This document shows, piece by piece, positions 2,130-40,372 of a stretch of 64,000 nucleotides of DNA. The stretch is from a virus. A model generated the notes under the pieces. That model searched no databases. It had not been told where the DNA came from and worked only from the letters and a program-made list of their open reading frames with translations. The DNA is taken from positions 1-64,000 of IMG/VR virus record IMGVR_UViG_3300017766_005465; one strand, written 5' to 3'. The translations under genes were made by a program, and so were the position numbers. The number at the start of each line of letters is the position of its first letter. The stretch's first letter is position 1.

Positions 2130-3404
2130 TCAAGAACCCGTAACCAGTTGTGAAAGTTGCTCCTTGATGGAGGAGCGGAGGTCCTTGAGGCCGCGGAGCA
2201 GGGCCCGCAGTTCCTTGACGCACTTCTTGTCCGCGGCTTCGCGGCACTGCCGCAGGTTCTCCGTCTCCCTCTTTATCTCAGAGTGGGCCTTAGAGTCCTC
2301 GATAGCGAGATCTTTGCACTTCTCAAAAACCTCAATGTCGGAGACTCTCTCCATGCAAAGAGTCCGATTCCGCCCGGTGAGGTCGGGGTGGGAGTTCTCG
2401 AGTCGGGCTTTGCTGGCCCTCTTAAAGTAGGAGTTCTTATCCTCGTGCCAGGTAGCAGGGATCTCAGGGAGAAAGAGTCCTCTGCGAAGCAGGAAGACTC
2501 GCGCGGATTCCATGTGATCTGGCCGGTTGGATGGAGTTGTGCTGTTAAGTACTTTGAGTAGGCGCCGGGTATCTTTGTCCGTAAAACGCCATTCAGTGTC
2601 CTCGTCATATAGGTCGAAAAATCGTAAAGGTGTGCCTGGGTAGAGGTTGTCGCCAAGATCGCCGTACTCCACTTTGAAGTCGTAGCAGCCTCTGGCGGAG
2701 GTGATATGCATTCCCTCCTTACGGAGGTAGTAGTCGCAGACCTCGCGCTCCGAGCGAAGCCGCGGAAGCCAGGGGCCGGTATTGGCCCAGATGATGTCGT
2801 GGGGGTCGGAGACGAGCCCCTGCCAATCCCCGTCCAGAGTACCGAGAAGGATCTGGCGTTTGCCCAGCTTGGAACTCTTGCGGGCTTTGCGCTTCAGCCT
2901 GCAGACGTGGCCGGCGATGTCGTCCGCTTCGAAGAACTCCTTGGCGAAGTAGTGGAAGGTGGAGCCGGGGGAGTTGATGTACTTGTACCCCTCCTCCTGA
3001 ACAAGATCGAAGAAGGCCGTTTTTTCGCCCCTCCCGCCCTTGTACTCGGGCATGGAGAGCTTGTGCGCCTCGATATGCCTCCAGTACCCCTTGCCACTCA
3101 CCGCGGCCTCGGAGAAATCCTCCGACAACACTCCCTTGAAATCGTCCGCCAGCAGGCCCACGAAGGGCACAGGAGGGAGCATGTCAGGGCCTCGGTTGAG
3201 TCTGTAGGCCCACATTGCTCTCAGGATCTTCCTGAGCTCCTCCTCTGACCCACGCGAAGCATCCTCAGCCGCCTCCGCGTAATTACATACGAAGTGCGCA
3301 CAAACCTTGAAATCAATGACGTAGACCGGACAATGAGGATCGAGGAGGGGCTCAAATACATCTTCGAGTAGAGTGGTGGTGTGGTCGTATTCCGGTAGGG
3401 GCAT
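2130..3404 (-). CDS. 5'-3' exonuclease / flap endonuclease (T4 RNase H / T5 D15-like)
   Basis: 424 aa. FEN-family acidic motifs: VIDFK, YKGGR, FEADDIAG, LDGDWQGL, GDLGDNL. Confidence 0.8.
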   Translation of the reverse strand: MPLPEYDHTTTLLEDVFEPLLDPHCPVYVIDFKVCAHFVCNYAEAAEDASRGSEEELRKILRAMWAYRLNRGPDMLPPVPFVGLLADDFKGVLSEDFSEAAVSGKGYWRHIEAHKLSMPEYKGGRGEKTAFFDLVQEEGYKYINSPGSTFHYFAKEFFEADDIAGHVCRLKRKARKSSKLGKRQILLGTLDGDWQGLVSDPHDIIWANTGPWLPRLRSEREVCDYYLRKEGMHITSARGCYDFKVEYGDLGDNLYPGTPLRFFDLYDEDTEWRFTDKDTRRLLKVLNSTTPSNRPDHMESARVFLLRRGLFLPEIPATWHEDKNSYFKRASKARLENSHPDLTGRNRTLCMERVSDIEVFEKCKDLAIEDSKAHSEIKRETENLRQCREAADKKCVKELRALLRGLKDLRSSIKEQLSQLVTGS

Positions 3405-4249
3405 CAGTTAGCAACGTCCATCTTCGTGGCGGGATGGGAGGTGTAGTCGATGAGCTCGAAGTCGGTCTCCGGATCGAGGTCGAAGATGGGTTTGGTGTTG
3501 TTGATCCAGACGTCGCAAGAGGCCATGGGGGAGTTGGTGATGATGGACTTGATGGCGAGTTCGTTCTGGGAGTAGATGTGGTTGTTGGCCGAGGCGAACA
3601 TCACGTAGCGTGGTGCCAACTCGGCGTCCTGTGCCATCTTGGTAACAAGGAGGCCGTAGCGGAACATATCCAACGGCACCCCTGTGGCCATGTCGTTGCT
3701 CCGGGCATTGACCATCAGATCAAGATAAGTCCCATCGCTAGAAAAAGTGAGGTTAGGATGACAAGGAGGGCAGTGAAGAGAATCGTAAGCAGGGTTAAAA
3801 GTCTGAAGCACCAGTTGGCGATTCGTCGGGTTGGTGCAGAGCTGCTCCCAGATCCACTTGAGTTGGTCGAATGGTTCGGCACGGAAGTTCTCCCACTGCA
3901 TGTTCTGCTCGGGGCAGACTTGAGGCCAGGCTCGCCAGCTCCGTCCGTAGGCTCCGGCCAGGCGGCCCTCAGCGTCGGCGAGGAAGTCCCAGAAGTGCTT
4001 GGCGGGCCCGAGATTGCTGACCCTGTAGTCCCCATTGACGTCCCACATGAACTCCCGGAAGAGGTTGCGGACGGGCATCTTGCGCAGCGTGAGAGCGGGG
4101 AAGCCCAGTCGCAGGTCGACCTTGATGGTCTGGCCGAACATCTGCTTGTAGCGGAGGTTATTGCGGCCTACGACCTCAGTGCCCTCGTCGAGGATCTCTC
4201 GGGCGATCTTGATGTACTGGAGGTCGAAGGGGAGGAGGGGTTGGGGCAT
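3404..4249 (-). CDS. Thymidylate synthase-fold enzyme, probable dCMP hydroxymethylase/methylase
   Basis: 281 aa. PPCH (Cys163), RSNDMATGVPLD and NHIY. The residue 31 aa after the catalytic Cys is Asp194, where dUMP-specific ThyA has Asn. Confidence 0.8.
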   Translation of the reverse strand: MPQPLLPFDLQYIKIAREILDEGTEVVGRNNLRYKQMFGQTIKVDLRLGFPALTLRKMPVRNLFREFMWDVNGDYRVSNLGPAKHFWDFLADAEGRLAGAYGRSWRAWPQVCPEQNMQWENFRAEPFDQLKWIWEQLCTNPTNRQLVLQTFNPAYDSLHCPPCHPNLTFSSDGTYLDLMVNARSNDMATGVPLDMFRYGLLVTKMAQDAELAPRYVMFASANNHIYSQNELAIKSIITNSPMASCDVWINNTKPIFDLDPETDFELIDYTSHPATKMDVAN

Positions 4250-4302
4250 GGACTCACTTTAGGGGTTATGAGTCCATTCTATCACACCCCGGTAGGGTTT
4301 GT

Positions 4303-4542
4303 CTAGGCCCCGAAATACTTGTCAATGAGGAGGCGCTGGAGCTTAACGAACTTACGGAGAGGGTAGTCGTACTCCATGGCCCACTGGAGCAGGGACCGAC
4401 TCCCCATCTCGATGAGTTCCATCTGAGGGTCCTCGGCGATGACATCCTCCTTGGCGACGAAGAACTTCTCCCCGTCGTGGGCCACTACGAGCCATGGCAC
4501 ATCCTTATCAAAGCGGATGGGCTTTGTGATACGTTCGATCAT
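4303..4542 (-). CDS. Hypothetical protein
   Basis: 79 aa ORF whose start overlaps the upstream stop (ATGA), with genome-typical codon usage. Confidence 0.65.
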   Translation of the reverse strand: MIERITKPIRFDKDVPWLVVAHDGEKFFVAKEDVIAEDPQMELIEMGSRSLLQWAMEYDYPLRKFVKLQRLLIDKYFGA

Positions 4543-7082
4543 TGTCTATCTTGTTTTTGGTGAGCTTTGATAATATCGTCGGTGGACTTGGCTTTGGAGA
4601 GCGCCCTAACTTGGGCCAGAGTCAGTCCACCTAGGTCTGGGGTGTTGTACCCGGGGCCTTTCGGCGTGGCTGGGGCGCCAGGAACGCACGTCTTACCGGA
4701 GCGCGTTGTTCCTGCCGGGCAACGCCCCAGCACTTTCCCCTTATAGAATACCATGGAATCGGCGTAATCGGCACCCTGGCCCTCCGTGTATGCGGCACGT
4801 TTGGCCTTGAGGATTTCCATGTAGTCCTCGTAAGTGGGTTTTTTCTTTTCCATCTCTTCAAACTCTAGTTCAGAAAAAGTTCTTCCAGATCCGGCACCGT
4901 ATTCTTTCGCGTTTGCTCGGCGAAGTCTATTGGCAAAGTCTGGATGGAGCACCATCTCGTGTTTTATGTTAGAACCATAGCCGACCCCGTCCTCCCTTAC
5001 ATTTACTTTAGCAAGAGGAAGAAGAGGCCCATCGCCGGCTTTACCGATCCATCCGAGATAGGGAGACCCATTCTCATCTATGGATACCTTAAAACCGGTT
5101 TTAATCTCATCAAAGTTTGTTGTTCCAAAAATATCCCGGCAGGTTTGAGTATCAAAAGATAGATCTCCTATTGCCATAACCTCTTTACCCTCAGCAACAT
5201 CTCTGATCGGAAAATTATTTTTTAGCTCTGTTAACATTCCGTCTCTTAAATTAGGATCCGTGTTAATTGCTTCTACGGCGCTTGAAACGAAATCTTTATG
5301 CGCTTGTTGAACTTCATCTCTGTAGCCTTCTACTCTTTGGTTAATTGCTGCTAAGTGAATAAGCTTTCTAGTAGATCTATTTAGAGTTTTTGAGGACGCA
5401 ATTTTATCTACTAATCCAGCCCAGTCTGTATTAGCGTTTTTCATTTCTTTTTGGGCTTTTCTAACAAGTTCCGCGTTTTCGGTAGAAGTTTCTAGGGCTT
5501 CGGATTCTAGGTTTTTTGCCTTCTCCCTAGCCCCTAGAACTCTCTGCTTACTTTCAGCGTCTAAGTTTCTGAATTCTGTTCCTTTTATCTTTAGATCTTC
5601 AGGGTCAACACCGTCTCTTTGGAGGAGTGACGAAAATATCTTTGCCTTGTCAGTTGGAATAGAGGAAATGTCAAACTGTTTTATTTGGTCTATGTTCTCT
5701 GAGAGAACTTTTCTAAGTCTCTTGTTTTGATTTTCAGCATAAACTTGACTGTTGTAAGAATCTTCAGGTTTTGCCCACTGTTCAGATTCAACAGAGTTTA
5801 TAGTCTCTAAAGCTTTATTCCACTTTTGATTTATCTCTGGTCCATCTTTCTTGCGCGGAAATTGAACTCCCAGCTCGTTTATTATTGCCGTTCGTATTTT
5901 CTGCGCTTCTAAATAAGCTTTTGCTCGCTCATGATAAGGAGAATCGGGATTTTCCGCATGGGATGTTACAATAAACTGACCGTATTGACCAGCTCCAGAA
6001 TTCAAAAAATTTACGCGCGTGTCTTTTTTAAGGGAGGGCTGATGTAAGGATCCATCAGACAGCTTTAAATAGATATCCGTAGAGAACCCTTTCTCGCTAT
6101 CATAATCCTTCATTCCTAACTCTTCCACTTCATCTTTAGTATCCCAAGCGCCTCCTATAATTGATACACCACCTCCCTTATTTGATTTAATAGAGTTCAG
6201 TATGGCAGTGCGGTTGTCTTGAGCAGCTTGAAACCAGTCTGGGGTAATTATCTGATTTTTTACTTTATTCTCTTTCTGGAACTTTAAAGCGTCCGAAATA
6301 ACAGATTGAAGCTTTTTAGACTGCTGTTCAGGTAGGCCAGTGAATGCAAGAGTCATTAACTCTCCACCTTGAGCGAAGATTTTTCCGGCTCCTCCTGGAA
6401 CTTCGCCTCCAAAGTAGGACCAGCCAATTTTATCCGATCCTGAAGTTACTAGCATTCTTGACAAAGCATCAAGATGTCTTGGTGGTATAGCAGTTTGATT
6501 TCCAATAGCTGCTCTAAGATCAACAAATTCTGTTCCGTTCCACTTACCCTCAGCTTTTATTTTGTCTAGGAATTGCTGATTTGTCTCTGTAAGTTCTACT
6601 TTAAAGTTATCCCCGATCTCTCTAGATGCGCCAGTTGCTTTTTCGGTGGATGGTGAAGACTTTGTTTTTTGTTCCGAAGGTTCCGGTTTTGGCTCAGGCG
6701 CAGGTTCGGGTTTGGACTGAGGCTTAGGTTCTTGAGGTTTTTCTTTTACAGTAGGCCCTTTCCAAACTCCTGATTTTCTGGCCTGCTCCATACGTTGAGC
6801 GGGGGATGCCGGAGCTTGCTGAGGGGCTTTTCCTTGACGGCAGGTTCCTCTACCATCATCGTACCATCCAGAGGGGCACCTTTGAACCTGGTGGGCGGGC
6901 TTACCGTCGTGGGCGGGCATGGTTTTCATCTGACCCGCGGCAAAACTTGCTACTTCGGAAAACCCAACAACATCCCTACCCTCAAGGGCGGGCATCTTGG
7001 CCTCGCCCTCGAGCGGAGCCTCCGCCACCCACTCAGTTTTGTCCGCGATTCCCCAATCCGAGGGGGCATAGTCCCCAAGCAT
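4539..7082 (-). CDS. Large hypothetical protein with a putative PD-(D/E)xK-like nuclease core; possible internal virion protein
   Basis: About 847 aa. TDIYLKL...HQPSLKK motif in an AT-rich core, Pro/Glu/Lys linker, two small Cys motifs (CPSGW...TC, CPAGT...TC). GGGTTTAAAG upstream. Confidence 0.6.
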   Translation of the reverse strand: MLGDYAPSDWGIADKTEWVAEAPLEGEAKMPALEGRDVVGFSEVASFAAGQMKTMPAHDGKPAHQVQRCPSGWYDDGRGTCRQGKAPQQAPASPAQRMEQARKSGVWKGPTVKEKPQEPKPQSKPEPAPEPKPEPSEQKTKSSPSTEKATGASREIGDNFKVELTETNQQFLDKIKAEGKWNGTEFVDLRAAIGNQTAIPPRHLDALSRMLVTSGSDKIGWSYFGGEVPGGAGKIFAQGGELMTLAFTGLPEQQSKKLQSVISDALKFQKENKVKNQIITPDWFQAAQDNRTAILNSIKSNKGGGVSIIGGAWDTKDEVEELGMKDYDSEKGFSTDIYLKLSDGSLHQPSLKKDTRVNFLNSGAGQYGQFIVTSHAENPDSPYHERAKAYLEAQKIRTAIINELGVQFPRKKDGPEINQKWNKALETINSVESEQWAKPEDSYNSQVYAENQNKRLRKVLSENIDQIKQFDISSIPTDKAKIFSSLLQRDGVDPEDLKIKGTEFRNLDAESKQRVLGAREKAKNLESEALETSTENAELVRKAQKEMKNANTDWAGLVDKIASSKTLNRSTRKLIHLAAINQRVEGYRDEVQQAHKDFVSSAVEAINTDPNLRDGMLTELKNNFPIRDVAEGKEVMAIGDLSFDTQTCRDIFGTTNFDEIKTGFKVSIDENGSPYLGWIGKAGDGPLLPLAKVNVREDGVGYGSNIKHEMVLHPDFANRLRRANAKEYGAGSGRTFSELEFEEMEKKKPTYEDYMEILKAKRAAYTEGQGADYADSMVFYKGKVLGRCPAGTTRSGKTCVPGAPATPKGPGYNTPDLGGLTLAQVRALSKAKSTDDIIKAHQKQDRQ

Positions 7083-7153
7083 ACTCAAGCTCTACTACCT
7101 AGTCTTTAAACCCGTGTCTTTCAGTCTAAAGACCCCCGTAAACCAATTCTACC

Positions 7154-8353
7154 ATGTCATCATACACCCACGGCCACATCATCCCCCTGGTAGGAGGGAG
7201 CGTGGTCGGCACGACCCTGGCCCTGGAGAAGGATCCGGAGTGGATCGCGTCCTGGAGCGATTCCTTCGGCGCCAATGATCAGTACTGCCTGAAGTACTTC
7301 GACAAGACCCCCTTCCACAACCTCGATGAGGGTAACTACCCCACCAAGTACGTTGATATCGTCACCTCGCTGCCGCCCTGCGCCGGCCTCTCCATGGCCA
7401 ATACCACCTCTGGTGAGAAGGTGAACAACCCGCGTGGTTGCTCGGCGCCCAGCAACATGCACATGTACCACGCGGCGGAGTTCGCCATGACGAAGATCAA
7501 GCCCAAGGCCATGATGGTGGAGAATGCACCCGCTCTCTACTCGAAGATGGGAGAGGAGTTTGCCGAGCGGATCAACTCCCTAGCCGCCGAGCATGGCTAC
7601 TCCATGAGCCTGGTGAAGACCACCTCGATCAATCACGGGGTGCCCCAGGAACGGACTCGTTCGTTCTTCTTCCTATGGCAGGGTGACAAAGTCCCTGTGC
7701 TTGCGCCTGTAAAGCGGGACTTCGAGCCCCTCCATAAGTTCCTGAAAGCTGGCGGATTCGCTAAATCCGAGCCCGTCAACTCCAAGGGTGTGCCTAGCAC
7801 CGATCCGCTCTGGCAGTTTATCGAGGGGAAGTACGCTGGATGCACGAAGCAGGACATCCTCTCCAAGGTGGCGGCGAATCGCATGACGTCCGTCTGGAAC
7901 GTTATCTACGAGTCGGGATGGTTGGAGGAGGCCGCTAGAGTGGTCAAGGGTGAGAAGGCTAGTCGGTGGCTTAACTACACACTCGAGAAGAAGCGCGCCG
8001 GCAAGAACATCATGGACGGGAGCATGAAACTGGCGTGGTATAGAACGCAGAGCCTGATGTGGAAGTCACTCCCCTATCTCATGCATCCCCACGAGGACCG
8101 CTGGCTCACGGTGGCTGAGGGCCTCGCTCTGATGGGATTCCCGAAGGACTACGCGGCGAAAGTCCACATCCCCACCAAGCACAGCAACGTAATCTGCCAA
8201 AACGTCCCGTCCACAACTGCTCGGGATTGGGTGCTAGAAATTGTCGAGGCTTTAAACGGCAACAGAGAGTGGGTAGAAAGACCCAATGGCGCCATTCTGA
8301 GACAGAATAACACTGCCTCTAAGAATCCTATGGAGCCGATCTGGGCGCTCTGA
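7154..8353 (+). CDS. DNA cytosine-C5 methyltransferase-like protein with atypical cofactor-binding motifs
   Basis: 399 aa. Motif IV PPCAGLS, VI VENAP, VIII PQERTR, IX RWLTVAEGLALMGFP. Motif I reads IIPLVGG and motif X reads ICQNVP. Confidence 0.85.
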   Translation: MSSYTHGHIIPLVGGSVVGTTLALEKDPEWIASWSDSFGANDQYCLKYFDKTPFHNLDEGNYPTKYVDIVTSLPPCAGLSMANTTSGEKVNNPRGCSAPSNMHMYHAAEFAMTKIKPKAMMVENAPALYSKMGEEFAERINSLAAEHGYSMSLVKTTSINHGVPQERTRSFFFLWQGDKVPVLAPVKRDFEPLHKFLKAGGFAKSEPVNSKGVPSTDPLWQFIEGKYAGCTKQDILSKVAANRMTSVWNVIYESGWLEEAARVVKGEKASRWLNYTLEKKRAGKNIMDGSMKLAWYRTQSLMWKSLPYLMHPHEDRWLTVAEGLALMGFPKDYAAKVHIPTKHSNVICQNVPSTTARDWVLEIVEALNGNREWVERPNGAILRQNNTASKNPMEPIWAL

Positions 8354-8357
8354 GCGC

Positions 8358-8924
8358 TCAGTACACCAGTTTGTTTTTGATCTGCATCATCCCACCGAGC
8401 AGGGCCTGAGCCTCGCTCCCGTCCGGCTCGTGGAAGATGATCTCCGCGGTACTGGCCACGAACTCCTCTGGGGTCTGTGGCCTTTCCTCGTATGTCTTCT
8501 CGTAGAGCTCGATGGCCTGGTCCACTGTGGCTTCGACTCGCGCCTCGATGACCTCGTCGGTCATAGTGAAGGTCTTGTGAAGCGCCTCCGACTGCACCCA
8601 CTTGCGCTGGACAAAGTCCACAAGGGCGAGCAGTTCCTTCCGGGTGAGATTCTCGTCCTCCACGGCTTTCAGTAGCATGGAGATGATGAGCCGGGTCTGC
8701 GACTCGGAGTAGTTCTTGTGCTCGGCATTTCTCAACCAGAAGATGTCCAGCTCGTCGAAGAGCGTCTTGAGGTTCCTGGCGCCGATGCGCTTTATCGCCT
8801 TCCTGTTGACGAAGTCTAGGATGAGGTCGAGGGCGGGTTCGAGTAGGCCCCACAGCACGGCGGCCTGGATGACGAGGCCCCTCTCCGATGGTCTCTTCTT
8901 CCCGAACGAAAAGTAAAAATCCAT
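8358..8924 (-). CDS. Hypothetical protein
   Basis: 188 aa helical ORF with genome-typical codon usage, convergent with the MTase-like gene. Confidence 0.65.
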   Translation of the reverse strand: MDFYFSFGKKRPSERGLVIQAAVLWGLLEPALDLILDFVNRKAIKRIGARNLKTLFDELDIFWLRNAEHKNYSESQTRLIISMLLKAVEDENLTRKELLALVDFVQRKWVQSEALHKTFTMTDEVIEARVEATVDQAIELYEKTYEERPQTPEEFVASTAEIIFHEPDGSEAQALLGGMMQIKNKLVY

Positions 8925-8933
8925 TACTGGTAG

Positions 8934-8965
8934 AAAAAAGAAAGGAGGGAAGCGTACCTCCCTCC
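8934..8965 (-). terminator. Rho-independent terminator
   Basis: Minus strand GGAGGGAG-gtacg-CTTCCCTCC hairpin followed by TTTCTTTTTT, just after the small-peptide operon. Confidence 0.8.
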
Positions 8966-8976
8966 GAAGAACCGGT

Positions 8977-9072
8977 CTACTTGGACCGGATAAGTTGAGC
9001 TATAGAGGCTTCGTGGCGCCTATCCTGCTTTTGCTTCTGCTCCTTGATGAGCTGGAGGACGTTAATCTTCAT
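8977..9072 (-). CDS. Small peptide (31 aa, MKINVLQLIKEQKQKQDRRHEASIAQLIRSK), absent from the ORF track
   Basis: ATG overlaps the upstream stop (TGATG), GGAGG lies upstream, and a terminator follows. Confidence 0.7.
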   Translation of the reverse strand: MKINVLQLIKEQKQKQDRRHEASIAQLIRSK

Positions 9073-9197
9073 CACTTATCCTCCTTCACGAACTTGACTC
9101 CTCTGTACACTTCGGAGTGCTGAAGTTGCATCTGATGCTGGTACTGGAGACGCTTCTGGGTGTCGTAAGACACACCGCGATAGACTGCTTTGGACAT
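9072..9197 (-). CDS. DUF4278-like YRG peptide (41 aa)
   Basis: MSKAVYRGVSYD...VYRGVKFVKEDK with two YRGV motifs. AAAGGAG RBS. Lies directly downstream of the riboswitches. Confidence 0.8.
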   Translation of the reverse strand: MSKAVYRGVSYDTQKRLQYQHQMQLQHSEVYRGVKFVKEDK

Positions 9198-9230
9198 TAG
9201 GTTGGCTCCTTTACTTGTTAGGGTATTGGT

Positions 9231-9336
9231 GCGTTCCTTCAGTCGGCTTTTGCGGCCACGTAAGCTGTGGCTGAACGGTCCGTTCCGAGTCGGCCTACTT
9301 CCGTCGGAGAGGGGGGATGCCTCTCCGATGAACGAT
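9231..9336 (-). ncRNA. Tandem glutamine riboswitch aptamers (glnA / Downstream-peptide type)
   Basis: Aptamer 1 (9336-9281): ATCGTTCATC-hairpin-GACGGAAGTAGG...GGAACG. Aptamer 2 (9278-9231): CCGTTCA-hairpin-CGCAAAAGCCGACTGAAGGAACGC. Both have CGTTC/GAACG P1 pairing. Confidence 0.85.
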
Positions 9337-9346
9337 CTATGTTTCT

Positions 9347-9832
9347 TTAATCGAATGCGTACTGAAGCCACTCCGGAGACCCAGAGTCTATCAGACTTAA
9401 CAGGAACCTATTCGCGGGCGCGCTCGGCTTTCTAGTCAGTCTCATCCCAGTCTGCTCGAGTGGGATGTCTCCCTTACGCGTATTGCATGTCGAGCACGCC
9501 ACGACCAGATTCTCCCACGTGTCCTTGCCTCCCCTGCTCCTAGGGATCACGTGGTCGATGGTCAGGCGTCTTGTCGATCCGCAGTACTGGCACTTGTGCC
9601 CGTCGCGCTTGTATATGAGGCTGCGGGAGGGTTTGAGCGAGTTGATCCTGGAGAAGGGTATCCTTATGTACTCGGTGAGCCGGATGACTTTAGCCGATAC
9701 GATCAGGGCTTTCTCCTTGAGCAGGAGGATGATGGCTCTCTTCCAGCTCGTGACATGGAGAGGTTCGTAGGACGCGTTGAGCACTAGGACCTGGGTGTTA
9801 GGCCTGATCTGTTTGACGTTTTCCGGTGCCAT
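9347..9832 (-). CDS. HNH endonuclease (McrA-like, cyanobacterial type)
   Basis: VLVLNASYEPL, RDGHKCQYCG, TIDHVIPRSRGG, NLVVACSTCNTRKG. Confidence 0.9.
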   Translation of the reverse strand: MAPENVKQIRPNTQVLVLNASYEPLHVTSWKRAIILLLKEKALIVSAKVIRLTEYIRIPFSRINSLKPSRSLIYKRDGHKCQYCGSTRRLTIDHVIPRSRGGKDTWENLVVACSTCNTRKGDIPLEQTGMRLTRKPSAPANRFLLSLIDSGSPEWLQYAFD

Positions 9833-9980
9833 CGCAGACTCCACATTCTACTATTTCGTTGGGTAATACACGCCCGTCGGGCGAGTTTTTCTCGATAACG
9901 AGGAATCCCCTGCCAGCGCAGTTCCTACAGGATGATTTGTCGATCTTACTGATGAGGCGTTGGCGGGGGACGGGGGCCAT
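9798..9980 (-). CDS. Small DnaJ-type zinc-finger protein
   Basis: 60 aa with CRNCAGRG and CGVCDGTG (CxxCxGxG) repeats. Confidence 0.65.
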   Translation of the reverse strand: MAPVPRQRLISKIDKSSCRNCAGRGFLVIEKNSPDGRVLPNEIVECGVCDGTGKRQTDQA

Positions 9981-9984
9981 GGGT

Positions 9985-10467
9985 TTAGAACGATGCTGAG
10001 TCGCAGATACCCTGAAGCTCTTCGGAGGGGGACGCGGTGACGGAGGCGTCTCCGTTCACGTTATGATCCGGCCGGACTTGATTGTAGGCCTGCTTCTCCG
10101 CGGCGATGGCGGAGAACTCCTCGCCGGTCACGCCGGCGTAGGCCAGGATGGCTCGGTGGAAGAGAAGGATGTCATACATCTCAGCTATAAACTCCCGGCG
10201 GAGTTCGGGTGAGTCCATGTAACTCCGCTCTTTGTTCTTCCAAGAGCGGCGGGGGACGTACACCCGGGCTTCGATCGCTTCCTCCATGAGGTGGCCGAAG
10301 TACTCGATGACTTTCTCGTAGCGGTAGCAGAGCCAGTCCTCGTTGAGGTAACCGTGCGCCGCCTCGTACTTCATCAGCATCTCAGGCCCTACACCACCGA
10401 CCTTGGCGGCGTACTTCTCCTGCGCCTCGAAGCCATCGTTGATGAACTTGACGTAATCGAAATTCAT
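9985..10467 (-). CDS. All-alpha dimeric dNTP pyrophosphatase (dUTPase/dCTPase, T4 gp56-like)
   Basis: 160 aa. EEAIE...SWK...EFIAEMYDILLF...KQAYNQVR pattern typical of the dimeric dUTPase/gp56/MazG fold. Confidence 0.7.
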   Translation of the reverse strand: MNFDYVKFINDGFEAQEKYAAKVGGVGPEMLMKYEAAHGYLNEDWLCYRYEKVIEYFGHLMEEAIEARVYVPRRSWKNKERSYMDSPELRREFIAEMYDILLFHRAILAYAGVTGEEFSAIAAEKQAYNQVRPDHNVNGDASVTASPSEELQGICDSASF

Positions 10468-10516
10468 TGGCTTACAGAACTTTCTCTAGAGATCATATCA
10501 TGGATCGGGGAGGATG

Positions 10517-12430
10517 TCAACCCTCGCAGGCGGCACACTCGCTGTATGTCTTCTCCCCCTGACCTAGCTTCTCGGCGAGGTCGGTGTAGCCTCCAACGTA
10601 CTGGTCATTGAGCCAGATCTGGGGCACGGTCTTCCACACCCACTCGGAGTCGGGGACATCGGCCCTATCCACCTCGTTGATGGTCCAGCCCTGGCTACGG
10701 AGAAGGGACTTGGCCATGGAGCAGTAGGGGCACTCCTGCTTGGTGATGATCTTCGCGACCTTCTGCTGGCCAGGAGGCTTCTTCTTCACGAGCAGGGACG
10801 AACTCTTCAGATAGTAGAGGGACTTGAGGCCACCCTTCCAAGCGCTCAGGTGGAGCTTGAAGAGGTACTCCGGCGAGGACTCGGGATCGACGAAAAGGTT
10901 GATGGACTGACCCTGGCAGACGTACCTCTGCCGGTCCGCGGCCTGCCTGATGATCTCAAACTGGTCGATCTCACGCGCCGTCCTGAACACCTCCTTGGTG
11001 TGGTCGTCGATGAACTTGAGATGCTGGATCGATCCTCTGAACTCCAGAATCGACTCCCACGTCTCGTCGGTATTCTTTCCGATCCTTTCGAGGTGCTCCA
11101 CGAGATACTTGTTCTTGCGAACGAAGGTCCCCTTGGCCTGCTTTGCAACGTAGTAGTTCGCGTCGATGGGCTCGATGCCCTCGCTTCCCGCTCCGCAGAT
11201 TACGGAGTTGGATTTGGTGGGGGCGATGGCCATGAGGTGGGTGTGACGGAGCCCGGTACCCTGGCACCATTCCGGCTCGCCGTAGGTGACGGCCATCTCA
11301 CGGGAGGCTTTCTGCGCCTTCTCCTTGACGTACCTGTGAACCTTCTCGTTGAGTTGGCGTGCCTCGGCGGAGGCGAAGGGGAGGTTCTTGGACTGGTAGA
11401 GAGCGTGGAGGCCCATGGTCCCCAGGCCCAGTGCCCTGGACTTGCGGGCGAATCTCACCGCTCTTCCCATGGAGGTGATGCGATCGGCCTTGTGGCAGAA
11501 CTCCTCCACAACAGCGTCGAGGAGGTACACGGCCAGCTCGGGGACGGTTTTGCCAGTGGCCGGGCCGGTCCAGTCCTTCCACTCCTCCCAGCGTGCTAGG
11601 TTGAGAGAGGAGAGAACGCAGACGAAGGTGTGGTTCTCGTCGGTGTGCAGGAAGATCTCCGAGCAGAGATTGCTGAGCTTAACACTCAGTCCTCTCTGAG
11701 TGTAGCATTCCGGATTGGCCTTGTTGGCGTTGTCGATAAAGATGATGTATGGAGACCCTGACACCAGTCTAGATTTTAGCACCTCGCCGAACAACTTCTG
11801 CTTGTCCCTATCCCCAGCAAGCAGGCTCTCTACCCACTCATCGGTGATGGTGATGGCGATGTTACTGTCGATGAAGTCACGTGGGTCGCCCTGCGAGTGG
11901 TCCTTGGAGCGTAAAACCTCCGGAAGATCGGGGTGGTCGATGGGGAGGTAGAGAGCGAAACTGCCGCGCCTCACCCCACCCTGAGACACCACAGCGGCGC
12001 ACTGGTCGTACTGCCTCATCCACGGCACCACGCCAGTGCTCTTCCCACCGGACGAGATGGGTGCCCCGGAGGGTCTGATATTGCCGAAGTAAGTTCCCAC
12101 CCCACCACCGTACTGGGAGAGCGCCGCCGACTCCTTGAGGTGGGAGTAGATGGAGCGCACGGAGTCCGAAATATCATTCGAGTAGCAGCTGATAGGCAGG
12201 CCACGCGAGGTGCCGAAGTTACTAGCCACGGGAGTGGCAAGTCCCAGAAACCCACGCCAGAGCACCTCGAAGATGTCTCCGGAGATCTCGGGGTAGTTGA
12301 GCAGTTTGGCGGCCTGGTTGGCCACACGCTCGTACATCCCCCTGGGCGTCTCGCCCTGATACAGGTAGCCTTTTGAGAGAGTTTTGATGGCTTCCTTGGA
12401 CATCCACTCGGGGACTTGTAACTCGGACAT
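10517..12430 (-). CDS. nrdA: Class I ribonucleotide reductase alpha subunit with a C-terminal glutaredoxin domain
   Basis: ATPV, PISC, SQGGVRRG, SNLCSEI, IAPT, SLYY. These are followed by a Grx domain (CPYC...TVPQIW...VGGY) and terminal ECAACEG. No ATP cone. Confidence 0.95.
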   Translation of the reverse strand: MSELQVPEWMSKEAIKTLSKGYLYQGETPRGMYERVANQAAKLLNYPEISGDIFEVLWRGFLGLATPVASNFGTSRGLPISCYSNDISDSVRSIYSHLKESAALSQYGGGVGTYFGNIRPSGAPISSGGKSTGVVPWMRQYDQCAAVVSQGGVRRGSFALYLPIDHPDLPEVLRSKDHSQGDPRDFIDSNIAITITDEWVESLLAGDRDKQKLFGEVLKSRLVSGSPYIIFIDNANKANPECYTQRGLSVKLSNLCSEIFLHTDENHTFVCVLSSLNLARWEEWKDWTGPATGKTVPELAVYLLDAVVEEFCHKADRITSMGRAVRFARKSRALGLGTMGLHALYQSKNLPFASAEARQLNEKVHRYVKEKAQKASREMAVTYGEPEWCQGTGLRHTHLMAIAPTKSNSVICGAGSEGIEPIDANYYVAKQAKGTFVRKNKYLVEHLERIGKNTDETWESILEFRGSIQHLKFIDDHTKEVFRTAREIDQFEIIRQAADRQRYVCQGQSINLFVDPESSPEYLFKLHLSAWKGGLKSLYYLKSSSLLVKKKPPGQQKVAKIITKQECPYCSMAKSLLRSQGWTINEVDRADVPDSEWVWKTVPQIWLNDQYVGGYTDLAEKLGQGEKTYSECAACEG

Positions 12431-12503
12431 AATGGCTGGCTTCCTGGTCGTTTATTCTAACAAAAATAAGGCGTAGCGTAGCAGCTTGGTAACTAAATAG
12501 TTA

Positions 12504-13139
12504 CTATGCTGCACTATCTAGTTTGATTCTGTTTGATGTGCTAATTCCTCTTTTTCTTTGAAAAAGACTAAGTGCTCCAGCAGTTGAAATTTTGCCAGTA
12601 GTAGTGCACATCCATTTTTGAGAATTTAATTTGGACAAATGTCCAGATTCTACATTCTTTCTTCCTTGAGTTTTTCCTCCTACTTTTCCTCCCAAACTAG
12701 AGATTCTCTGCAGGTGTCCTGATTGTACGTTTCTCCTACCAACCTCTTTGCACTTTTCAATGTCTCTTATTTGATCTAGTTGTCCGGATTTTGCATTTTT
12801 TCTCCCTTGAATTCTCCCATTCTCCCTGCAACGTTCTGAACCTTTATTAAGTGGTCCGTAGATTCTACCTAAATTTTGGATAAATCCGGTCTCCTTATGC
12901 TTATTACCGGATGTCTTACCACCTTTAGAAGCTCCTAAAAGTTGAACTTCTTTGATAACTTCTTGCTTGTTGTACTGACCGGATAAACCCTTCCAAGCTA
13001 TAAAGTCCTCGCGCTTTTTATGTAAACACCAGTTAGCGTAATGCCACATTGCATGTTGAGTTATTGAAACTTCAATAATGTTGGATAACTCATTAGTGCC
13101 TCCAAGATGCTTAGGAATAATGTGATGCTTATGTTTCAT
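12504..13139 (-). CDS. Free-standing HNH homing endonuclease
   Basis: HKHHIIPKHLGG...N...HAMWH followed by G/K-rich repeats. Strongly AT-rich relative to its neighbours. Lies between nrdB and nrdA. Confidence 0.8.
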   Translation of the reverse strand: MKHKHHIIPKHLGGTNELSNIIEVSITQHAMWHYANWCLHKKREDFIAWKGLSGQYNKQEVIKEVQLLGASKGGKTSGNKHKETGFIQNLGRIYGPLNKGSERCRENGRIQGRKNAKSGQLDQIRDIEKCKEVGRRNVQSGHLQRISSLGGKVGGKTQGRKNVESGHLSKLNSQKWMCTTTGKISTAGALSLFQRKRGISTSNRIKLDSAA

Positions 13140-13545
13140 TTGATTTTTTAATCAGTCCGTCATCCCAAGCTTGTTGTACGTTTTCTGACCTGGTTCCCCA
13201 CTTTAGGTTAGAGATGGAGTTGTTGGTTCCGTCATTGTCCTTATGCAAAATGACAATATGCTCTCCCTGAGGCTTCGGAGGACCGAATAGTTGCATAACT
13301 AACTCGTGAACTTTCGGTTCCTCGCGTTTGCCATCCCAGGTGAGGTTCATTCTCTGGTGCTTGCGATCGTCGTCGCGTGGCTTACGGTTCTGGGTGTCTC
13401 CCTTACGACGAACTTTCCCCCCACTACTGACTTCGTAGGGGGAGTCCTTCCACTGCTTCCATTGTTCGCCAGAGTCGGCGTAGTTACGCCCTCCCTGATC
13501 CCGTCCTCTGACCCTCCAGCCATCGGGTCTTACAAAGTCACTCAT
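13129..13545 (-). CDS. HNH endonuclease (NUMOD4/HNH_3 type)
   Basis: EQWK...YEVSSGGKVR, VHELVMQLF, ILHKDNDGTNNSISNLKWGTRSEN. Start placed at the ATG coupled to the upstream stop. Confidence 0.85.
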   Translation of the reverse strand: MSDFVRPDGWRVRGRDQGGRNYADSGEQWKQWKDSPYEVSSGGKVRRKGDTQNRKPRDDDRKHQRMNLTWDGKREEPKVHELVMQLFGPPKPQGEHIVILHKDNDGTNNSISNLKWGTRSENVQQAWDDGLIKKSNET

Positions 13546-13744
13546 GCCATCTTTCCACGTAGTCGTCGAAACCACCCATCCCGCCGCAGGGTCTTGAGAA
13601 CCTGTCAGGCGGTGGGGAGGTGATCATGTTCTTTCTGTAGCGTTGGATGTAGAGGTCGGCTCTGCGGTCAGTGATGAGGCACACGGTGCCGTGATCGGCT
13701 ACCATAAGCTTGCTGTCTCTATCAGGGTTTGGGTGAATCGCCAT
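13538..13744 (-). CDS. Hypothetical protein
   Basis: 68 aa ORF overlapping both neighbours in the operon. Confidence 0.6.
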   Translation of the reverse strand: MAIHPNPDRDSKLMVADHGTVCLITDRRADLYIQRYRKNMITSPPPDRFSRPCGGMGGFDDYVERWHE

Positions 13745-13897: not shown

Positions 13898-14908
13898 TTA
13901 GTGGTAGGAGAGGCAGGAGTCCAGATCTAGCGCTGTGAGATCGACACTCATGTAGTCCTGAGTGGGTTTGGCAACGTAGTTGTCGCCCGACTTGCCCTGC
14001 GCGAAGAAATCCGAACTACTAGCCCCTTTGATCATGGGCTCGAACCAGGCACTGATGGACTTTGCTCTTGAGAGTTCCTCGGTGGACAGATGGAAGATCT
14101 GCCGAAGTCCGAGCGTGACGAGCTGTTCATTGGCGCGGTTGGTTATGTAAGCTTTCAACTCATCCGCATCGATTGAGCCAATATATGCAGCGTTAAAAAT
14201 GTGGTCAATAAAAGCGAACTCCTTATCCACCACGAGGCGGAAGCCCTCGTAAATCGCCTGCTCCTCAGCATCCGTGAGTCCCGTCTCGTTGACAAGATAG
14301 CGGAAAAGCTTGCACCCAGCCTCCGAGTGAGTCTGCTCGTCGATAGCGGACCACGAGATAATCTGCGCGAGGCCTTTGTAACGTCCATCCTTGTTAAAGC
14401 TCAGTAGTACGGCGAAGGAACTGAACAGGGAAACACCCTCGCCAGCTCCGGAGAAAACAGCTAGGGCGACCTTGTCGGGGTACTTCTGGAAGAAGGTGTC
14501 GATCTTAGAGCACGCCACGGGATCGTTGATGAACTCCTCGTAGTCCTTGAGGCCGAGGACGTCGTTGAGGTACGAGTAGGCGGCGGCGTGGATCGTCTCA
14601 AAAAACGAGAAGGCGCGGGCCATGGACTGGATCTCCGGCTTAGGGAAAATCCGGCAGACCTCGTCCGCCCAGTAACAACCTATACCCAATTCCGCGCTTA
14701 CAAAGCCCTTTAGAATCCCGGCTATAACCGCTCTTTCGTCGGGTGTTGAGTTGAATTGCCAATCTCGCAGATCTCCCTCCATAGGTACCTCCGCGTGCCG
14801 CCATACGGAGGCTACGGTGTTCTCGTAGTAGTCGTAGAACTCGGGGTAATCGAACCCGTCGTCCTTCTTGAAGACCATCTTGTTGTGCTCGAGGATGCTG
14901 ATGCTCAT
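13898..14908 (-). CDS. nrdB: Class I ribonucleotide reductase beta subunit
   Basis: 336 aa ferritin-like protein. Ligands SAE, ETIH, GEG, DEQTH. Radical-site Tyr in HAAAY. FPKPEI and DFF motifs. Confidence 0.93.
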   Translation of the reverse strand: MSISILEHNKMVFKKDDGFDYPEFYDYYENTVASVWRHAEVPMEGDLRDWQFNSTPDERAVIAGILKGFVSAELGIGCYWADEVCRIFPKPEIQSMARAFSFFETIHAAAYSYLNDVLGLKDYEEFINDPVACSKIDTFFQKYPDKVALAVFSGAGEGVSLFSSFAVLLSFNKDGRYKGLAQIISWSAIDEQTHSEAGCKLFRYLVNETGLTDAEEQAIYEGFRLVVDKEFAFIDHIFNAAYIGSIDADELKAYITNRANEQLVTLGLRQIFHLSTEELSRAKSISAWFEPMIKGASSSDFFAQGKSGDNYVAKPTQDYMSVDLTALDLDSCLSYH

Positions 14909-15642
14909 TTGTTTTCGTGGATGGTGAGGTTGTGGTTATCGCAGTCGAATACTCCTAGAGTTCCGTCGGTGGCGTCCCCGCCGGGGTCGTTCACAACGCA
15001 ATTGTCCTCGACAAGAACCCTGGCCCAGTGCCCCGAGCAGAGTACGTCGGTGCCAGTGGCACCCCACCGTTGTGGGTTACGCCAGAACCCCGTGCGCTTG
15101 GTTATCTTTTTACCCTGCCACAGCCACGATGACTCGCGACCACGTAGGGTGGAGTTGATCTCCGTGGGTGTGAGCCCACCCTCGGAGTACTTCGCCTCAA
15201 AATCCTTCTGGTAGAAGGCGTGAGCGGCTTTGTATGTTTTTCCGTTGCCGGAATTATAAGTAAATGTTAAAGGCCTTGAATCCAACCACAGGATCAGTTC
15301 GTCCCGAGTAGGTTCGTCCAAAGTCCGGATTTCATCTATAGTATTTTTGAAGCCCGCTATGCTCTTGCGAACATCCCTCCTCTCAAGAAACAGATCGGTT
15401 AGGTTCTGAGCGTGATTGGAGTGGAGGAGGGTAGCGTAACCCTCGTCGCAAAGCTGCCGCACAAGACGGTAGACTTTCAGAAAGGAGCACTTCGGCCTGT
15501 ACAATTTATCCCTGCAGTCCGACAGATCCCCCAGGAAGACAAGATGGGCGCCCTGGCTGAGTGGCTTTGAGAGCCGGTCCAGGAGGCGTTCCAGCGCGTC
15601 GTCGCGGGAGTGGATGTCGGAGATCAGCAGGACGTTCTGCAC
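14905..15642 (-). CDS. Calcineurin-like metallophosphoesterase
   Basis: SDIH, LGDLSD, SNH, AHA and SGH motifs. Confidence 0.85.
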   Translation of the reverse strand: MQNVLLISDIHSRDDALERLLDRLSKPLSQGAHLVFLGDLSDCRDKLYRPKCSFLKVYRLVRQLCDEGYATLLHSNHAQNLTDLFLERRDVRKSIAGFKNTIDEIRTLDEPTRDELILWLDSRPLTFTYNSGNGKTYKAAHAFYQKDFEAKYSEGGLTPTEINSTLRGRESSWLWQGKKITKRTGFWRNPQRWGATGTDVLCSGHWARVLVEDNCVVNDPGGDATDGTLGVFDCDNHNLTIHENK

Positions 15643-15706
15643 TACGGTTGGCGTCTGATTACCACCATTCTACCACGGGTGGGGTCCCATGGCGGGTTGG
15701 TGGTGG

Positions 15707-16261: not shown

Positions 16262-16296
16262 TGAGAGATTAAGTACCGTGTTAGATCTTTAAACCC

Positions 16297-16331
16297 AAAA
16301 GAAAAACTCCCCTAGCCGAGGCCGGGGGAGT
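16297..16331 (-). terminator. Rho-independent terminator
   Basis: Minus strand ACTCCCCCGGCC-TC-GGCTAGGGGAGT hairpin followed by TTTTCTTTT. Confidence 0.75.
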
Positions 16332-16355
16332 AGTGGTTCTATGCCCGTGAGCGGG

Positions 16356-17719: not shown

Positions 17720-17724
17720 GTGAA

Positions 17725-32924: not shown

Positions 32925-32933
32925 TGGTATAAT
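32925..32933 (+). promoter_or_regulatory. Extended -10 (sigma70-type) promoter
   Basis: TGGTATAAT upstream of the thioredoxin-sigma operon. The same element occurs upstream of several replication and metabolism genes. Confidence 0.7.
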
Positions 32934-32965
32934 GCGTTCGTATCACCTTGCAAGGATTACAAATT

Positions 32966-33283
32966 ATGACAGATCAACAGTTCAAGTACCGGGTGGTCTT
33001 CTTTCAACAACCCGGTTGCGTTGCGTGCAACACCATGAAGCCGGTATGGTCGGCGGCGGCTAACGAGCTCTCTGAGGAGTACCCTCACTACTCCATAGGT
33101 TTTGGCGAGTGGGACGTTACAACCGACGAGTGGGAGTTCTGCGACCAGATCGAGTGCGATGGCACTCCGAACTTCGCCGTGTTCGACGAAGACTCGGAGC
33201 TCCTAGGTATAAATACCGATGGCATTCTTGCTAAGTCCCAACTCAAGGACTTCATCGTGGGCGCCATAGAAACCAACAACTAA
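32966..33283 (+). CDS. Thioredoxin-like protein
   Basis: FFQQPGCVACNTMKP and GTPNF (cis-Pro) motifs. Confidence 0.85.
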   Translation: MTDQQFKYRVVFFQQPGCVACNTMKPVWSAAANELSEEYPHYSIGFGEWDVTTDEWEFCDQIECDGTPNFAVFDEDSELLGINTDGILAKSQLKDFIVGAIETNN

Positions 33284-38994: not shown

Positions 38995-39006
38995 ATCGGG
39001 CGCTTA

Positions 39007-39738
39007 TCAGACTACGGCGACGACTTTGGCCAGAGCCGCGGTCTTCTGGGTGGCGCCGGTGGAAACGGCGGTGTTGACGTTGAGAGCGACGATCTGACCG
39101 ACTTTGAACCCACCACCGGCGGTTGTGATCGCGCCGAGCGCGGTAACCTTGCCCGCTGTGAGAGTTGCGGTCGCAACACCGAAGGCATAACCCGCGGGAT
39201 TGGTTGTCTCGGTCGACTCGATCTTGATTGACACGGTGCCTGACGTCAGAGTGCCGTTGGTGGTGTAGCCACTTCCCGCCTTCTCCAAGGAGAGTGTCAC
39301 GAGCCCACCCACAGGGGCCTGAGGAGCCGGAACGACCTCGGCGATGATCGCTGAGATCACTTCGGCCAGGTTGAAGCTTGCCACCATGAAGTGGAAGTCC
39401 TCGTCGCCCTCCATACCAACGTACCTGATGACGTTAAAGAGGCCCTCGTCGAGCAGCGCTTTGTCCTCGGCGGGCACGTCGGCGCTGGCGTTAAGCGCGT
39501 CACCGATGTACTTGAGTAGGCTGTAGGCGATCCTCTTGGCTTCGAAGCCCATCGTCGGACCCGCCTTCACGAAGCTATTGTATAGAGCGAGTCTGCTGGC
39601 GGAGGTGTTGTCACCGTTGCTGTACGACGCGACGAGGGTGTCCGTGCGGGCTTCGTCTAGAAACTCCTGGAATTTGATCTTGTATTCAAACTGGATTCCC
39701 AGGGTACGGTACAGGCCCTGGTTGAGGATATTGGCCAT
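39007..39738 (-). CDS. Hypothetical virion protein
   Basis: 243 aa with a Thr/Ala/Gly-rich C terminus (AGSGYT, AGGGFKVG). GTTTAAAG upstream. Confidence 0.55.
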   Translation of the reverse strand: MANILNQGLYRTLGIQFEYKIKFQEFLDEARTDTLVASYSNGDNTSASRLALYNSFVKAGPTMGFEAKRIAYSLLKYIGDALNASADVPAEDKALLDEGLFNVIRYVGMEGDEDFHFMVASFNLAEVISAIIAEVVPAPQAPVGGLVTLSLEKAGSGYTTNGTLTSGTVSIKIESTETTNPAGYAFGVATATLTAGKVTALGAITTAGGGFKVGQIVALNVNTAVSTGATQKTAALAKVVAVV

Positions 39739-39784
39739 GGTGAAGTAATACTTCTAGAGCCCTTATAGGGCGGATCGACTATCT

Positions 39785-40372
39785 TTAAACAGAGACAAGG
39801 TGATCGAGCAGGTTAAAGTCCTTGTCAGTGTCGCGAAGAACGGTGTGCGGGAGGAGGGAGTAGCGGTTGAGGTAGTTATGCATGTAGCCGTAGTAGGCGT
39901 AATGCTCGGCCTCCCGCGCCTTCATCTTATTCTTGATCCACCAGGCCGTGGCCTCAGGATACTCCTCCCGTACCTCGATGAGGTGATGGGGTTGACTCCA
40001 CTTCCATTCCCGCTCGAGGAGGAATACCTTCACGTCCGAACTGCGCTCCAGGAAGTAGGATTCGGCGGCTTGAGCCCACTCGTGGGAGATGGAGATACGC
40101 CTACGAAACTCGTCGTAGAAGCAGACCTCGGAGAACCCACGATCGCATAGCACGAATTCTGGCGTCCTCTCTAGGACGGAGTTGAAGGGCCCGATGTACT
40201 GCTCGATGGGGCTGGAGTGGTGGGGTTGAGGCTCGGAGAAGTGCAGGGCGGTGGCGTGAATGTTCCGGTGCCGAAATCTCCTGAGGGTGTTCTCGATGAT
40301 GGTAGATTTGCCGACTCTGTCAGCTCCAAGCAGAACTACTGTGACGGGCTTGGACATTGGAAGTGAGATCAT
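39785..40372 (-). CDS. Deoxynucleoside monophosphate kinase (thymidylate kinase-like)
   Basis: P-loop GADRVGKST and LCDRGFSE (DR motif). TGATATAAT at 40382-40390 upstream. Confidence 0.75.
   Translation of the reverse strand: MISLPMSKPVTVVLLGADRVGKSTIIENTLRRFRHRNIHATALHFSEPQPHHSSPIEQYIGPFNSVLERTPEFVLCDRGFSEVCFYDEFRRRISISHEWAQAAESYFLERSSDVKVFLLEREWKWSQPHHLIEVREEYPEATAWWIKNKMKAREAEHYAYYGYMHNYLNRYSLLPHTVLRDTDKDFNLLDHLVSV

Follow-up and report, generated by a model that had tools for sequence, protein, structure and literature searches.

In bacteriophage T4, gp42 is a deoxycytidine monophosphate (dCMP) hydroxymethylase, gp56 a dCTPase/dUTPase, gp1 a deoxynucleoside monophosphate (dNMP) kinase and cd a dCMP deaminase; an alpha-glucosyltransferase is the fifth member of the set, and a second enzyme, td, makes thymidine monophosphate (dTMP). 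Xanthomonas phage Xp12, a 5-methylcytosine phage, has a ThyA homologue with Asp at position 177 and a C-terminal region; its gene is clustered with those for a dCMP deaminase and a dihydrofolate reductase (DHFR), and no glycosyltransferase is annotated in 50 kb of the Xp12 record. In RB69, DLP3 and RL38JI, where 5-hydroxycytosine is glycosylated, a flavin-dependent ThyA homologue is reported together with its own dNMP kinase and DNA glycosyltransferases, and clusters of the RL38JI type include a nucleoside diphosphate-sugar mutase (PMC13326640). The stretch of DNA analysed here ('the window') comprises bases 1–64,000 of a 118,537-base virus contig (IMG/VR record IMGVR_UViG_3300017766_005465; G+C 55.7%). 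Scattered through it are genes for a ThyA homologue, a MazG-like pyrophosphatase, a thymidylate-kinase-like kinase and both subunits of ribonucleotide reductase (NrdAB), each of them at the position where an initial annotation, made from the letters of the window, had put it.

That annotation took the scattered genes for a coherent set for making and using C5-modified dCMP. A promoter of early type that the genes share, ThyX in relatives of the virus, and the adjacency of ThyA and kinase genes in a second phage lineage all support this. We lean modestly to the view that a 5-substituted cytosine, probably 5-hydroxymethylcytosine (5hmC), takes the place of cytosine ahead of replication and is then glycosylated; the substrates, the product and the completeness of replacement we infer from gene identities at the level of fold and family, from active-site residues, from the shared promoter, and from co-occurrence and adjacency of genes in relatives. 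Each of the five T4 roles could be filled here—by an Asp-position ThyA-family enzyme, an all-alpha nucleoside triphosphate (NTP) pyrophosphatase, a P-loop dNMP-type kinase, a dCMP deaminase and an alpha-glucosyltransferase homologue—and ThyX, in relatives, would be the second enzyme to make dTMP, as td is in T4.

Judged by sequence, the T4 analogy holds in logic, not in enzyme membership. The claim that the T4 enzyme set itself is at work here is not supported: the ThyA homologue is without the T4 signature, and the pyrophosphatase and kinase are not detectable homologues of gp56 and gp1. Identity between the ThyA homologue and gp42 is only 19% (E 8e-6), Asp145 and Ser94 of gp42 are missing, and the C-terminal region is kept. 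No homology to gp56 or gp1 is detectable by hhalign or tblastn, and in tblastn searches of the contig none of T4 gp1, denB, gp56, gp42, a-gt, b-gt (beta-glucosyltransferase), dexA, gp46, gp47 and endoVII, RB69 p045 and gp48, or Xp12 DHFR finds anything below E 0.028; the sole matches are to Xp12 thymidylate synthase (1.5e-16) and Xp12 dCMP deaminase (0.008). The polymerase, too, is pol-gamma-like and of family A, not family B as in T4, and a C5-cytosine methyltransferase is present here, another difference from T4.

The contig is linear according to IMG/VR and 73% complete according to CheckV. On protein evidence its source is a TIM5-like cyanomyovirus, syntenic with cyanophage S-TIM5 (Aurunvirus), to which it is 30–89% identical in amino acid sequence along nearly its entire length; identities are 81% for the ThyA homologue, 59% for the MazG-like protein, 49% for the kinase, 65% for the glucosyltransferase homologue and 73% for the deaminase. 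Protein searches were required to find S-TIM5; at the nucleotide level, a megablast comparison of 10 kb with 50,697 phage records yields a single match, of 126 bases. TIM5-like isolates have a G+C content of ~41% and are widespread in the sea (PMC10087341), whereas the contig, at 55.7%, comes from lake metagenomes. Its 10-kb stretch 3001–13000 turns up in 18 studies, in 20 lake or freshwater metagenome runs altogether, and four are possible origins of the record. A stretch of S-TIM5 at ~145–172 kb, which carries ThyX and a helicase, has no counterpart on the contig, and we take the contig to be incomplete at the ThyX region for that reason. In the S-TIM5 record the MazG-like and kinase genes are labelled 'hypothetical protein' and the ThyA gene 'thymidylate synthase'. 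What is new is a ThyA clade with Asp177 and Cys143, together with its private kinase, and a pathway predicted for a cyanophage lineage that has been annotated in those terms. No paper that describes modified cytosine in TIM5-like phages came up in our literature search, which did not cover the original 2012 description of S-TIM5, and an earlier mention is possible.

The ThyA homologue and its kinase partner

The ThyA homologue (3404–4249, minus strand; PF00303, E 8.4e-54) probably modifies dCMP at C5, to judge from its residues. Alignments to E. coli ThyA, T4 gp42, Xp12 and RB69 place Asp at the position of E. coli Asn177 (T4 Asp179), which bears out its earlier description as 'Asp-type', and the change from Asn177 to Asp is reported to shift the substrate of ThyA from deoxyuridine monophosphate (dUMP) to dCMP (PMC8670742; PMC13326640). 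Around its CPPCH active-site motif, the protein has the thymidylate synthase fold with the catalytic Cys aligned, and it retains Arg21, Glu58, Trp80, Tyr94, Cys146, His147, Arg166, Ser167, Asp169, His207 and Tyr209 (E. coli numbering). Synthases of 5-hydroxy-dCMP are marked by a change from Asp169 to Asn (PMC13326640). The homologue, with Asp169 in place, lacks this mark of the RB69 gp48 type, and differs from RB69 gp48 also in having a C-terminal region.

A search of the full library returned 7130 relatives of this protein, of which the best 150 were aligned with the references; 142 could be scored. Position 177 is Asn in 108 of these and Asp in 34; of the 34 with Asp, 11 have Cys143, and of the 108 with Asn, none has it. 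All of the Cys143 sequences fall, with the ThyA homologue and its S-TIM5 counterpart, into a single 18-tip clade (FastTree support 0.925) from which E. coli, T4, RB69 and Xp12 are excluded. Asp177 is universal in this clade (18/18), Cys replaces Leu143 in 13 of the 18, and several residues common among the Asn177 sequences have all but vanished: Trp83 is retained in one member (versus 88/108), Gln165 in none (versus 84/108), and the usual hydrophobic C-terminal end in one (versus 91/108). In thymidylate synthase, Trp83, Leu143 and the C-terminus are described as sealing the site so that hydride can be transferred (PMC6400193). Loss of this seal in the clade would be in keeping with a product that forms when water attacks, and so with hydroxymethylation brought about by a different set of residues.

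Tentatively, we suggest that the Asp177/Cys143 'CPPCH' ThyAs might be a further functional class, always accompanied by a private kinase family, that makes a glycosylatable 5-substituted dCMP without the Asp145-activated water of T4; His142 and Cys143 may substitute for it. This is possible rather than probable; it would make the TIM5-like phages, marine and lacustrine, the first cyanophages known as a lineage to carry sugar on the cytosine of their DNA. P0216, a 447-residue 'fusion', proves to combine an HNH/NUMOD4 endonuclease with a ThyA of related type, and is uninformative on function.

The kinase (39785–40372, minus strand) has 195 residues, a P-loop (GADRVGKST) and an AF2 model with a pLDDT of 92.4. 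Its best Foldseek matches are thymidylate kinases (E 1.7e-5, probability 1.00, TM 0.50–0.58), and 122 matches have E values of 0.001 or less; by this structural likeness it is a candidate kinase for modified dCMP. Sequence searches of Pfam, PHROG and, with phmmer, the PDB gave no identification (there is no Pfam match above threshold), and of 36 source names for it 34 read 'hypothetical protein', one reads 'GTPase SAR1 family protein' and one is blank. The proposal that it is a dNMP kinase accordingly stands as far as the thymidylate kinase fold goes, but not as homology to gp1: hhalign of the family against T4 gp1 gives a probability of 3.6%, confined to the P-loop, and tblastn of gp1 against the contig a best E value of 3.1.

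In the window ThyA and kinase are 36 kb apart; in a second phage lineage they adjoin. This lineage is represented by seven IMG/VR fragments that carry relatives of the ThyA clade member P0214; its portal is of Mu type, its polymerase is pol-gamma-like, and its fragments are 9–20% complete in the five records checked. Profile search finds a member of the kinase family directly upstream of the same-clade ThyA in six of the seven loci, and the seventh begins inside its ThyA gene, cut at the contig end. The second-lineage kinase and the 195-residue kinase family match with an hhalign probability of 99.5% (E 6e-23, 171 columns). Since the two genes adjoin there, the dispersed set can be regarded as a functional unit, and this adjacency is the best evidence that the unit is real.

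At one second-lineage locus (L033:479–4769) the gene order is UDP-galactopyranose mutase (UDP, uridine diphosphate; PF03275, E 8e-52), kinase, a 355-residue protein of unknown function, an 89-residue open reading frame (ORF) and an Asp177/Cys143-clade ThyA. The arrangement looks like a DNA-glycosylation gene cluster, and the mutase recalls the sugar mutases of the RL38JI-type clusters (PMC13326640). Such a mutase occurs in one of the five second-lineage records searched, and a sugar-nucleotide enzyme beside the ThyA–kinase pair leans toward a glycosylated product. No support was found for the 355-residue gene as a glycosyltransferase. Neither the MazG-like family nor an alpha-glucosyltransferase was found in the second-lineage records, at their 9–20% completeness.

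Pyrophosphatase, reductase and the early promoter

The protein encoded at 9985–10467 (minus strand) has 160 residues and 375 metagenomic homologues, and matches nothing in Pfam, PHROG or, by phmmer, the sequences of the PDB. Its AF2 model is all-helical (pLDDT 90.5), and the top rows of its Foldseek search are DR2231, DCTPP1, iMazG and PRA-PH, all MazG-like, at E values of 0.3–1.4, none of them significant. VIA gives Z scores of 6.7–7.3 for 2a3q, 2yeu, 1yvw, 1vmg, 4qgp and 2oie, tied with those for unrelated helical bundles. In the Atlas, a feature search, all of the ten best named clusters belong to the MazG/PRA-PH/dATP-dGTP_PPHyd/dUTPase_2 clan (scores 0.91–0.93). Six acidic residues, E62, E63, E66, E92, E96 and D99, do not vary across the 36 aligned homologues; they form an EExxE…ExxD motif, which we take to be the metal-binding pattern of MazG-type enzymes. 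Each of these lines is indecisive individually and all point in the same direction, and on such model-based grounds we accept the protein as a MazG-like, all-alpha NTP pyrophosphohydrolase and a candidate dCTPase. It had been called gp56-like. Probable membership of the MazG-like clan would uphold part of that name, but homology to gp56 is not to be seen (hhalign probability 4.7% between the family and T4 gp56).

Next to it lie the genes for ribonucleotide reductase. NrdA (10517–12430, minus strand; PF02867, E 4e-104) ends in a glutaredoxin domain (PF00462, E 3.3e-8, residues 561–612). NrdB (13898–14908, minus strand; PF00268, E 2.2e-48) overlaps a 245-residue gene upstream (14905–15642) that bears the promoter, and a thioredoxin gene is found farther on (32948–33283, plus strand; PF00085, E 3.9e-7).

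Most of these metabolic genes had been said to share an extended -10 promoter, and they do. The box TGNTAKRAT (i.e. TGnTA(G/T)(A/G)AT) occurs 11 times in the window, compared with 3.6 +/- 2.0 expected, a number reached in none of 100 shuffles. Eight of the 11 lie 18–66 nucleotides (nt) upstream of a same-strand start codon, and the genes they lead are those for ThyA, an 849-residue ORF, the MazG-like protein, NrdA, the 245-residue protein ahead of NrdB, a Mo-nitro_C protein, thioredoxin and the kinase; a ninth, at 33947, lies 16 nt before an ORF that starts at 33963. On the minus strand, TGATAGAAT (4276–4284) precedes the start codon of ThyA by 35 nt, TGATATGAT (10492–10500) precedes the MazG-like gene by 33 nt, TGTTAGAAT (12454–12462) precedes NrdA by 32 nt, and TGATATAAT (40382–40390) precedes the kinase by 18 nt and has TTGACT farther upstream. 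TGGTAGAAT (15667–15675) precedes the 245-residue gene and TGGTATAAT (32925–32933) the thioredoxin gene. The dCMP deaminase gene, which is outside the window, has the same box 34 nt upstream.

Other genes do without it. The methyltransferase and HNH genes have no box, and a primase-like gene has TTGACT…TATAAT without the TG. A different motif, GTTTAAAG, is found upstream of the glucosyltransferase homologue (contig 112522–112560) and, within the window at 7089–7153, 16262–16340 and 39739–39784, upstream of several structural genes or genes of unknown function. In place of the early box, the glucosyltransferase homologue has GGTTTAAAG 22 nt upstream. The extended -10 box is real, and it sets the early nucleotide-metabolism genes apart from the late genes. 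One of the early boxes stands before a gene for a 107-residue protein with a Mo-dependent nitrogenase C-terminal domain (17396–17719; PF06967, E 1.1e-14).

Genes beyond the window and the predicted pathway

No glycosyltransferase is present among the 30 ORFs of the window scanned with Pfam, as the initial annotation had observed. It had gone on to suggest that any hypermodification might differ from T4's, and this second step is undercut, because a full-length homologue of T4 DNA alpha-glucosyltransferase lies farther along the contig, at 111247–112521. The protein has 424 residues; BLASTP aligns its residues 5–412 with residues 2–387 of the T4 enzyme (E 8e-15), which is also its only significant match among PDB sequences (phmmer, E 1.5e-9). 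In S-TIM5 the equivalent gene is annotated 'DNA alpha-GT', and 'DNA alpha glucosyl transferase' is among the genes labelled in a figure legend on TIM5-like phages (PMC10087341). From this homology, the protein is predicted to glucosylate 5hmC in DNA, using UDP-glucose.

The dCMP deaminase (contig 74645–75052; PF00383, E 1e-22) is close to the solved S-TIM5 enzyme, 4p9c (E 1.4e-67). ThyX is present in S-TIM5 and in the records of four of five relatives. Because the lineage carries ThyX, a dUMP-specific, dTMP-making role for the ThyA homologue is unnecessary. Family searches of the contig, which is 73% complete, found no TET/JBP, 2OG-FeII_Oxy_3, DHFR_1 or ThyX.

If cytosine is replaced and then glycosylated, the steps might run as follows. 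Host-type extended -10 promoters would drive, early on, expression of the reductase and its redoxins, the MazG-like pyrophosphatase, the Asp177 ThyA, the thymidylate-kinase-like kinase and the dCMP deaminase. The pyrophosphatase would convert dCTP to dCMP, and the ThyA homologue would add a one-carbon group at C5 of the dCMP, giving most likely 5-hydroxymethyl-dCMP, less likely 5-methyl-dCMP. The kinase would phosphorylate the modified dCMP, allowing its incorporation by the pol-gamma-like polymerase, while dTMP would come separately from dCMP deaminase and ThyX, the latter seen in relatives. Finally the glucosyltransferase homologue, behind its late GTTTAAAG motif, would glycosylate the base in DNA.

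Replacement and glycosylation of cytosine would affect how these phages are recognized by host restriction and CRISPR and how completely sequencing and counts based on the polymerase chain reaction recover them, and would bear on the evolution of the cytosine-modifying branch of thymidylate synthases. A ThyA clade in which Cys replaces the water-activating Asp is a candidate new type of enzyme, and its kinase partner an unannotated family. S-TIM5 is a cultured isolate, which makes the prediction directly testable.

Counter-evidence, alternatives and neighbouring genes

Several observations weigh against replacement and glycosylation, beginning with the ThyA homologue itself. The signature of T4-type hydroxymethylases includes Asp or Glu at the third residue ahead of the catalytic Cys (T4 Asp145), Ser or Thr two residues before Tyr (T4 Ser94), and absence of the C-terminal tail; the T4 mutant D145N no longer forms 5-hydroxymethyl-dCMP (PMC6400193). 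Three of the four features of this signature are missing. The residue three before the catalytic Cys is Cys (HCPPCH), that two before the catalytic Tyr is Gly, and the protein retains its C-terminal region, with 34 residues aligned beyond E. coli position 230 as in E. coli itself, where T4 gp42 has 12 and RB69 one. With three of four features absent, the homologue is not, on its sequence, a member of the T4 hydroxymethylase family. Moreover, plain N177D is enough to make thymidylate synthase a dCMP methylase (cited in PMC8670742).

Other members of the set raise doubts of their own. Sequence searches with the pyrophosphatase are non-significant; within its family, Pfam matches occur in three of 36 members, at E 0.099–0.16 (PF04447 in two, best E 0.099; PF01503 in one, E 0.16), and its VIA Z score of ~7 is equalled by unrelated helical bundles. 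The MazG of cyanophage S-PM2 favours dGTP and dCTP, a preference that its authors read as pool balancing (PMC6850273), and by analogy pool balancing is an ordinary alternative for the pyrophosphatase here. Against PF11440 the glucosyltransferase homologue reaches 20.6 bits, short of the cut-off of 25; tblastn with T4 a-gt missed its gene at contig 111247–112521 yet matched the S-TIM5 gene; and it is absent from the records of four of the five relatives. Those four are 53–86% complete, and the one relative that has it is the only one with a 100%-complete record. Finally, the same block of genes encodes a C5-cytosine DNA methyltransferase homologue (7154–8353, plus strand; PF00145, E 6.9e-19) that is conserved, being 69% identical to its S-TIM5 counterpart. 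By eye it has PPC, ENA and QERTR, presumably its catalytic motifs, intact. On fully replaced cytosine such an enzyme would lack a substrate; perhaps replacement is partial, the target of the enzyme is some other DNA, or its chemistry is different.

The main rival explanation is that the ThyA homologue methylates dCMP in the manner of Xp12, that cytosine is replaced by 5-methylcytosine, and that the glucosyltransferase homologue acts elsewhere or not on DNA. We think this unlikely, if still a serious contender. Besides the sufficiency of N177D and the missing T4 features, other workers obtained 5-methyl-dCMP from five of the seven Asp177 homologues that they tested (bioRxiv 10.1101/2024.12.05.627091), and the homologue resembles Xp12 in Asp177, in its C-terminal region and in being accompanied by a dCMP deaminase. 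Xp12, however, lies outside the 18-tip clade, and has Asn143, Pro147 and Phe83 where the homologue has Cys143, His147 and Leu83; because these residues differ, the homologue is not Xp12-like, in a comparison drawn on Xp12 residues and tree position. The DHFR gene of Xp12 adjoins its ThyA gene, whereas DHFR_1 has no match in the contig or in any of the five relatives; the Synechococcus elongatus control did match, so the host may supply the enzyme. ThyX makes an Xp12-style route to dTTP unnecessary. And the conserved T4-type alpha-glucosyltransferase homologue needs a hydroxyl acceptor, and neither TET/JBP nor 2OG-FeII_Oxy_3 has a match in the contig.

The palindromes of the window carry little weight either way. 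GATC, CTAG, CTCGAG and GGATCC had been thought common, and restriction-site avoidance small. Against a maximal-order Markov expectation, GATC (440 observed, 447 expected), CTCGAG (36 and 35.7) and GGATCC (28 and 27.5) are indeed at expectation, but CTAG is depleted (110 against 164; observed/expected (O/E) 0.67, z -5.7), not common. The six-base palindromes, 64 in number, have a median O/E of 0.93 in the window, where two of them are at z < -3, and of 0.90 in the contig, where seven are. Avoidance is weak but present.

A second rival, that there is no wholesale replacement and that these are ordinary pool enzymes—a reductase making precursors, a MazG-like enzyme cleaning or recycling dNTPs, a thymidylate kinase, a ThyA with a minor product, and a C5-methyltransferase for the marks—is quite improbable: the dGTP/dCTP preference of S-PM2 MazG as read by its authors (PMC6850273), true thymidylate kinases as the kinase's best structural matches, the conserved methyltransferase, and a slight avoidance of palindromes that a fully protected genome would not need all speak for it, but Asp177 in the company of ThyX leaves the ThyA homologue no ordinary role, the kinase family adjoins the same ThyA clade in six of seven second-lineage loci, and a DNA alpha-glucosyltransferase homologue is conserved.

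Of the 'nuclease-like genes' that the initial annotation counted in the pathway, the presence is borne out but not the role; they are of HNH homing and flap-endonuclease-like kinds, and no cytosine-specific nuclease was found. T4 denB, gp46 and gp47 (denA was not among the queries) find nothing below E 0.028 in the contig by tblastn. A flap-endonuclease/5'-exonuclease-like gene (2130–3404, minus strand; phrog_26716, E 1.9e-95; phrog_107 exonuclease, E 6.3e-7) has an S-TIM5 homologue annotated flap endonuclease, and it is probably co-transcribed with ThyA, because its ATG overlaps the ThyA stop codon (TGATG). Three HNH genes surround nrdA and nrdB: an HNH endonuclease (9347–9844, minus strand; PF01844, E 1.3e-17), an HNH_3 and NUMOD4 endonuclease (13129–13575; PF13392, E 3.3e-9; PF07463), and a 211-residue gene with a weak, partial HNH match (12504–13139); the evidence for these genes includes phrog_959 (E 6.1e-27). 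They look like homing-type endonucleases, not members of the pathway.

The 849-residue ORF (4539–7088) has no match in Pfam or PHROG. Between 4001 and 8000 the G+C content of the window drops to 49.7%, compared with 52–58% in the remaining 4-kb stretches, and this dip spans the middle of the 849-residue ORF together with the beginning of the methyltransferase gene. Farther along the contig are genes for an OprB/SLH porin-like protein (102962–104467) and a ferredoxin-dependent bilin reductase (107207–107866).

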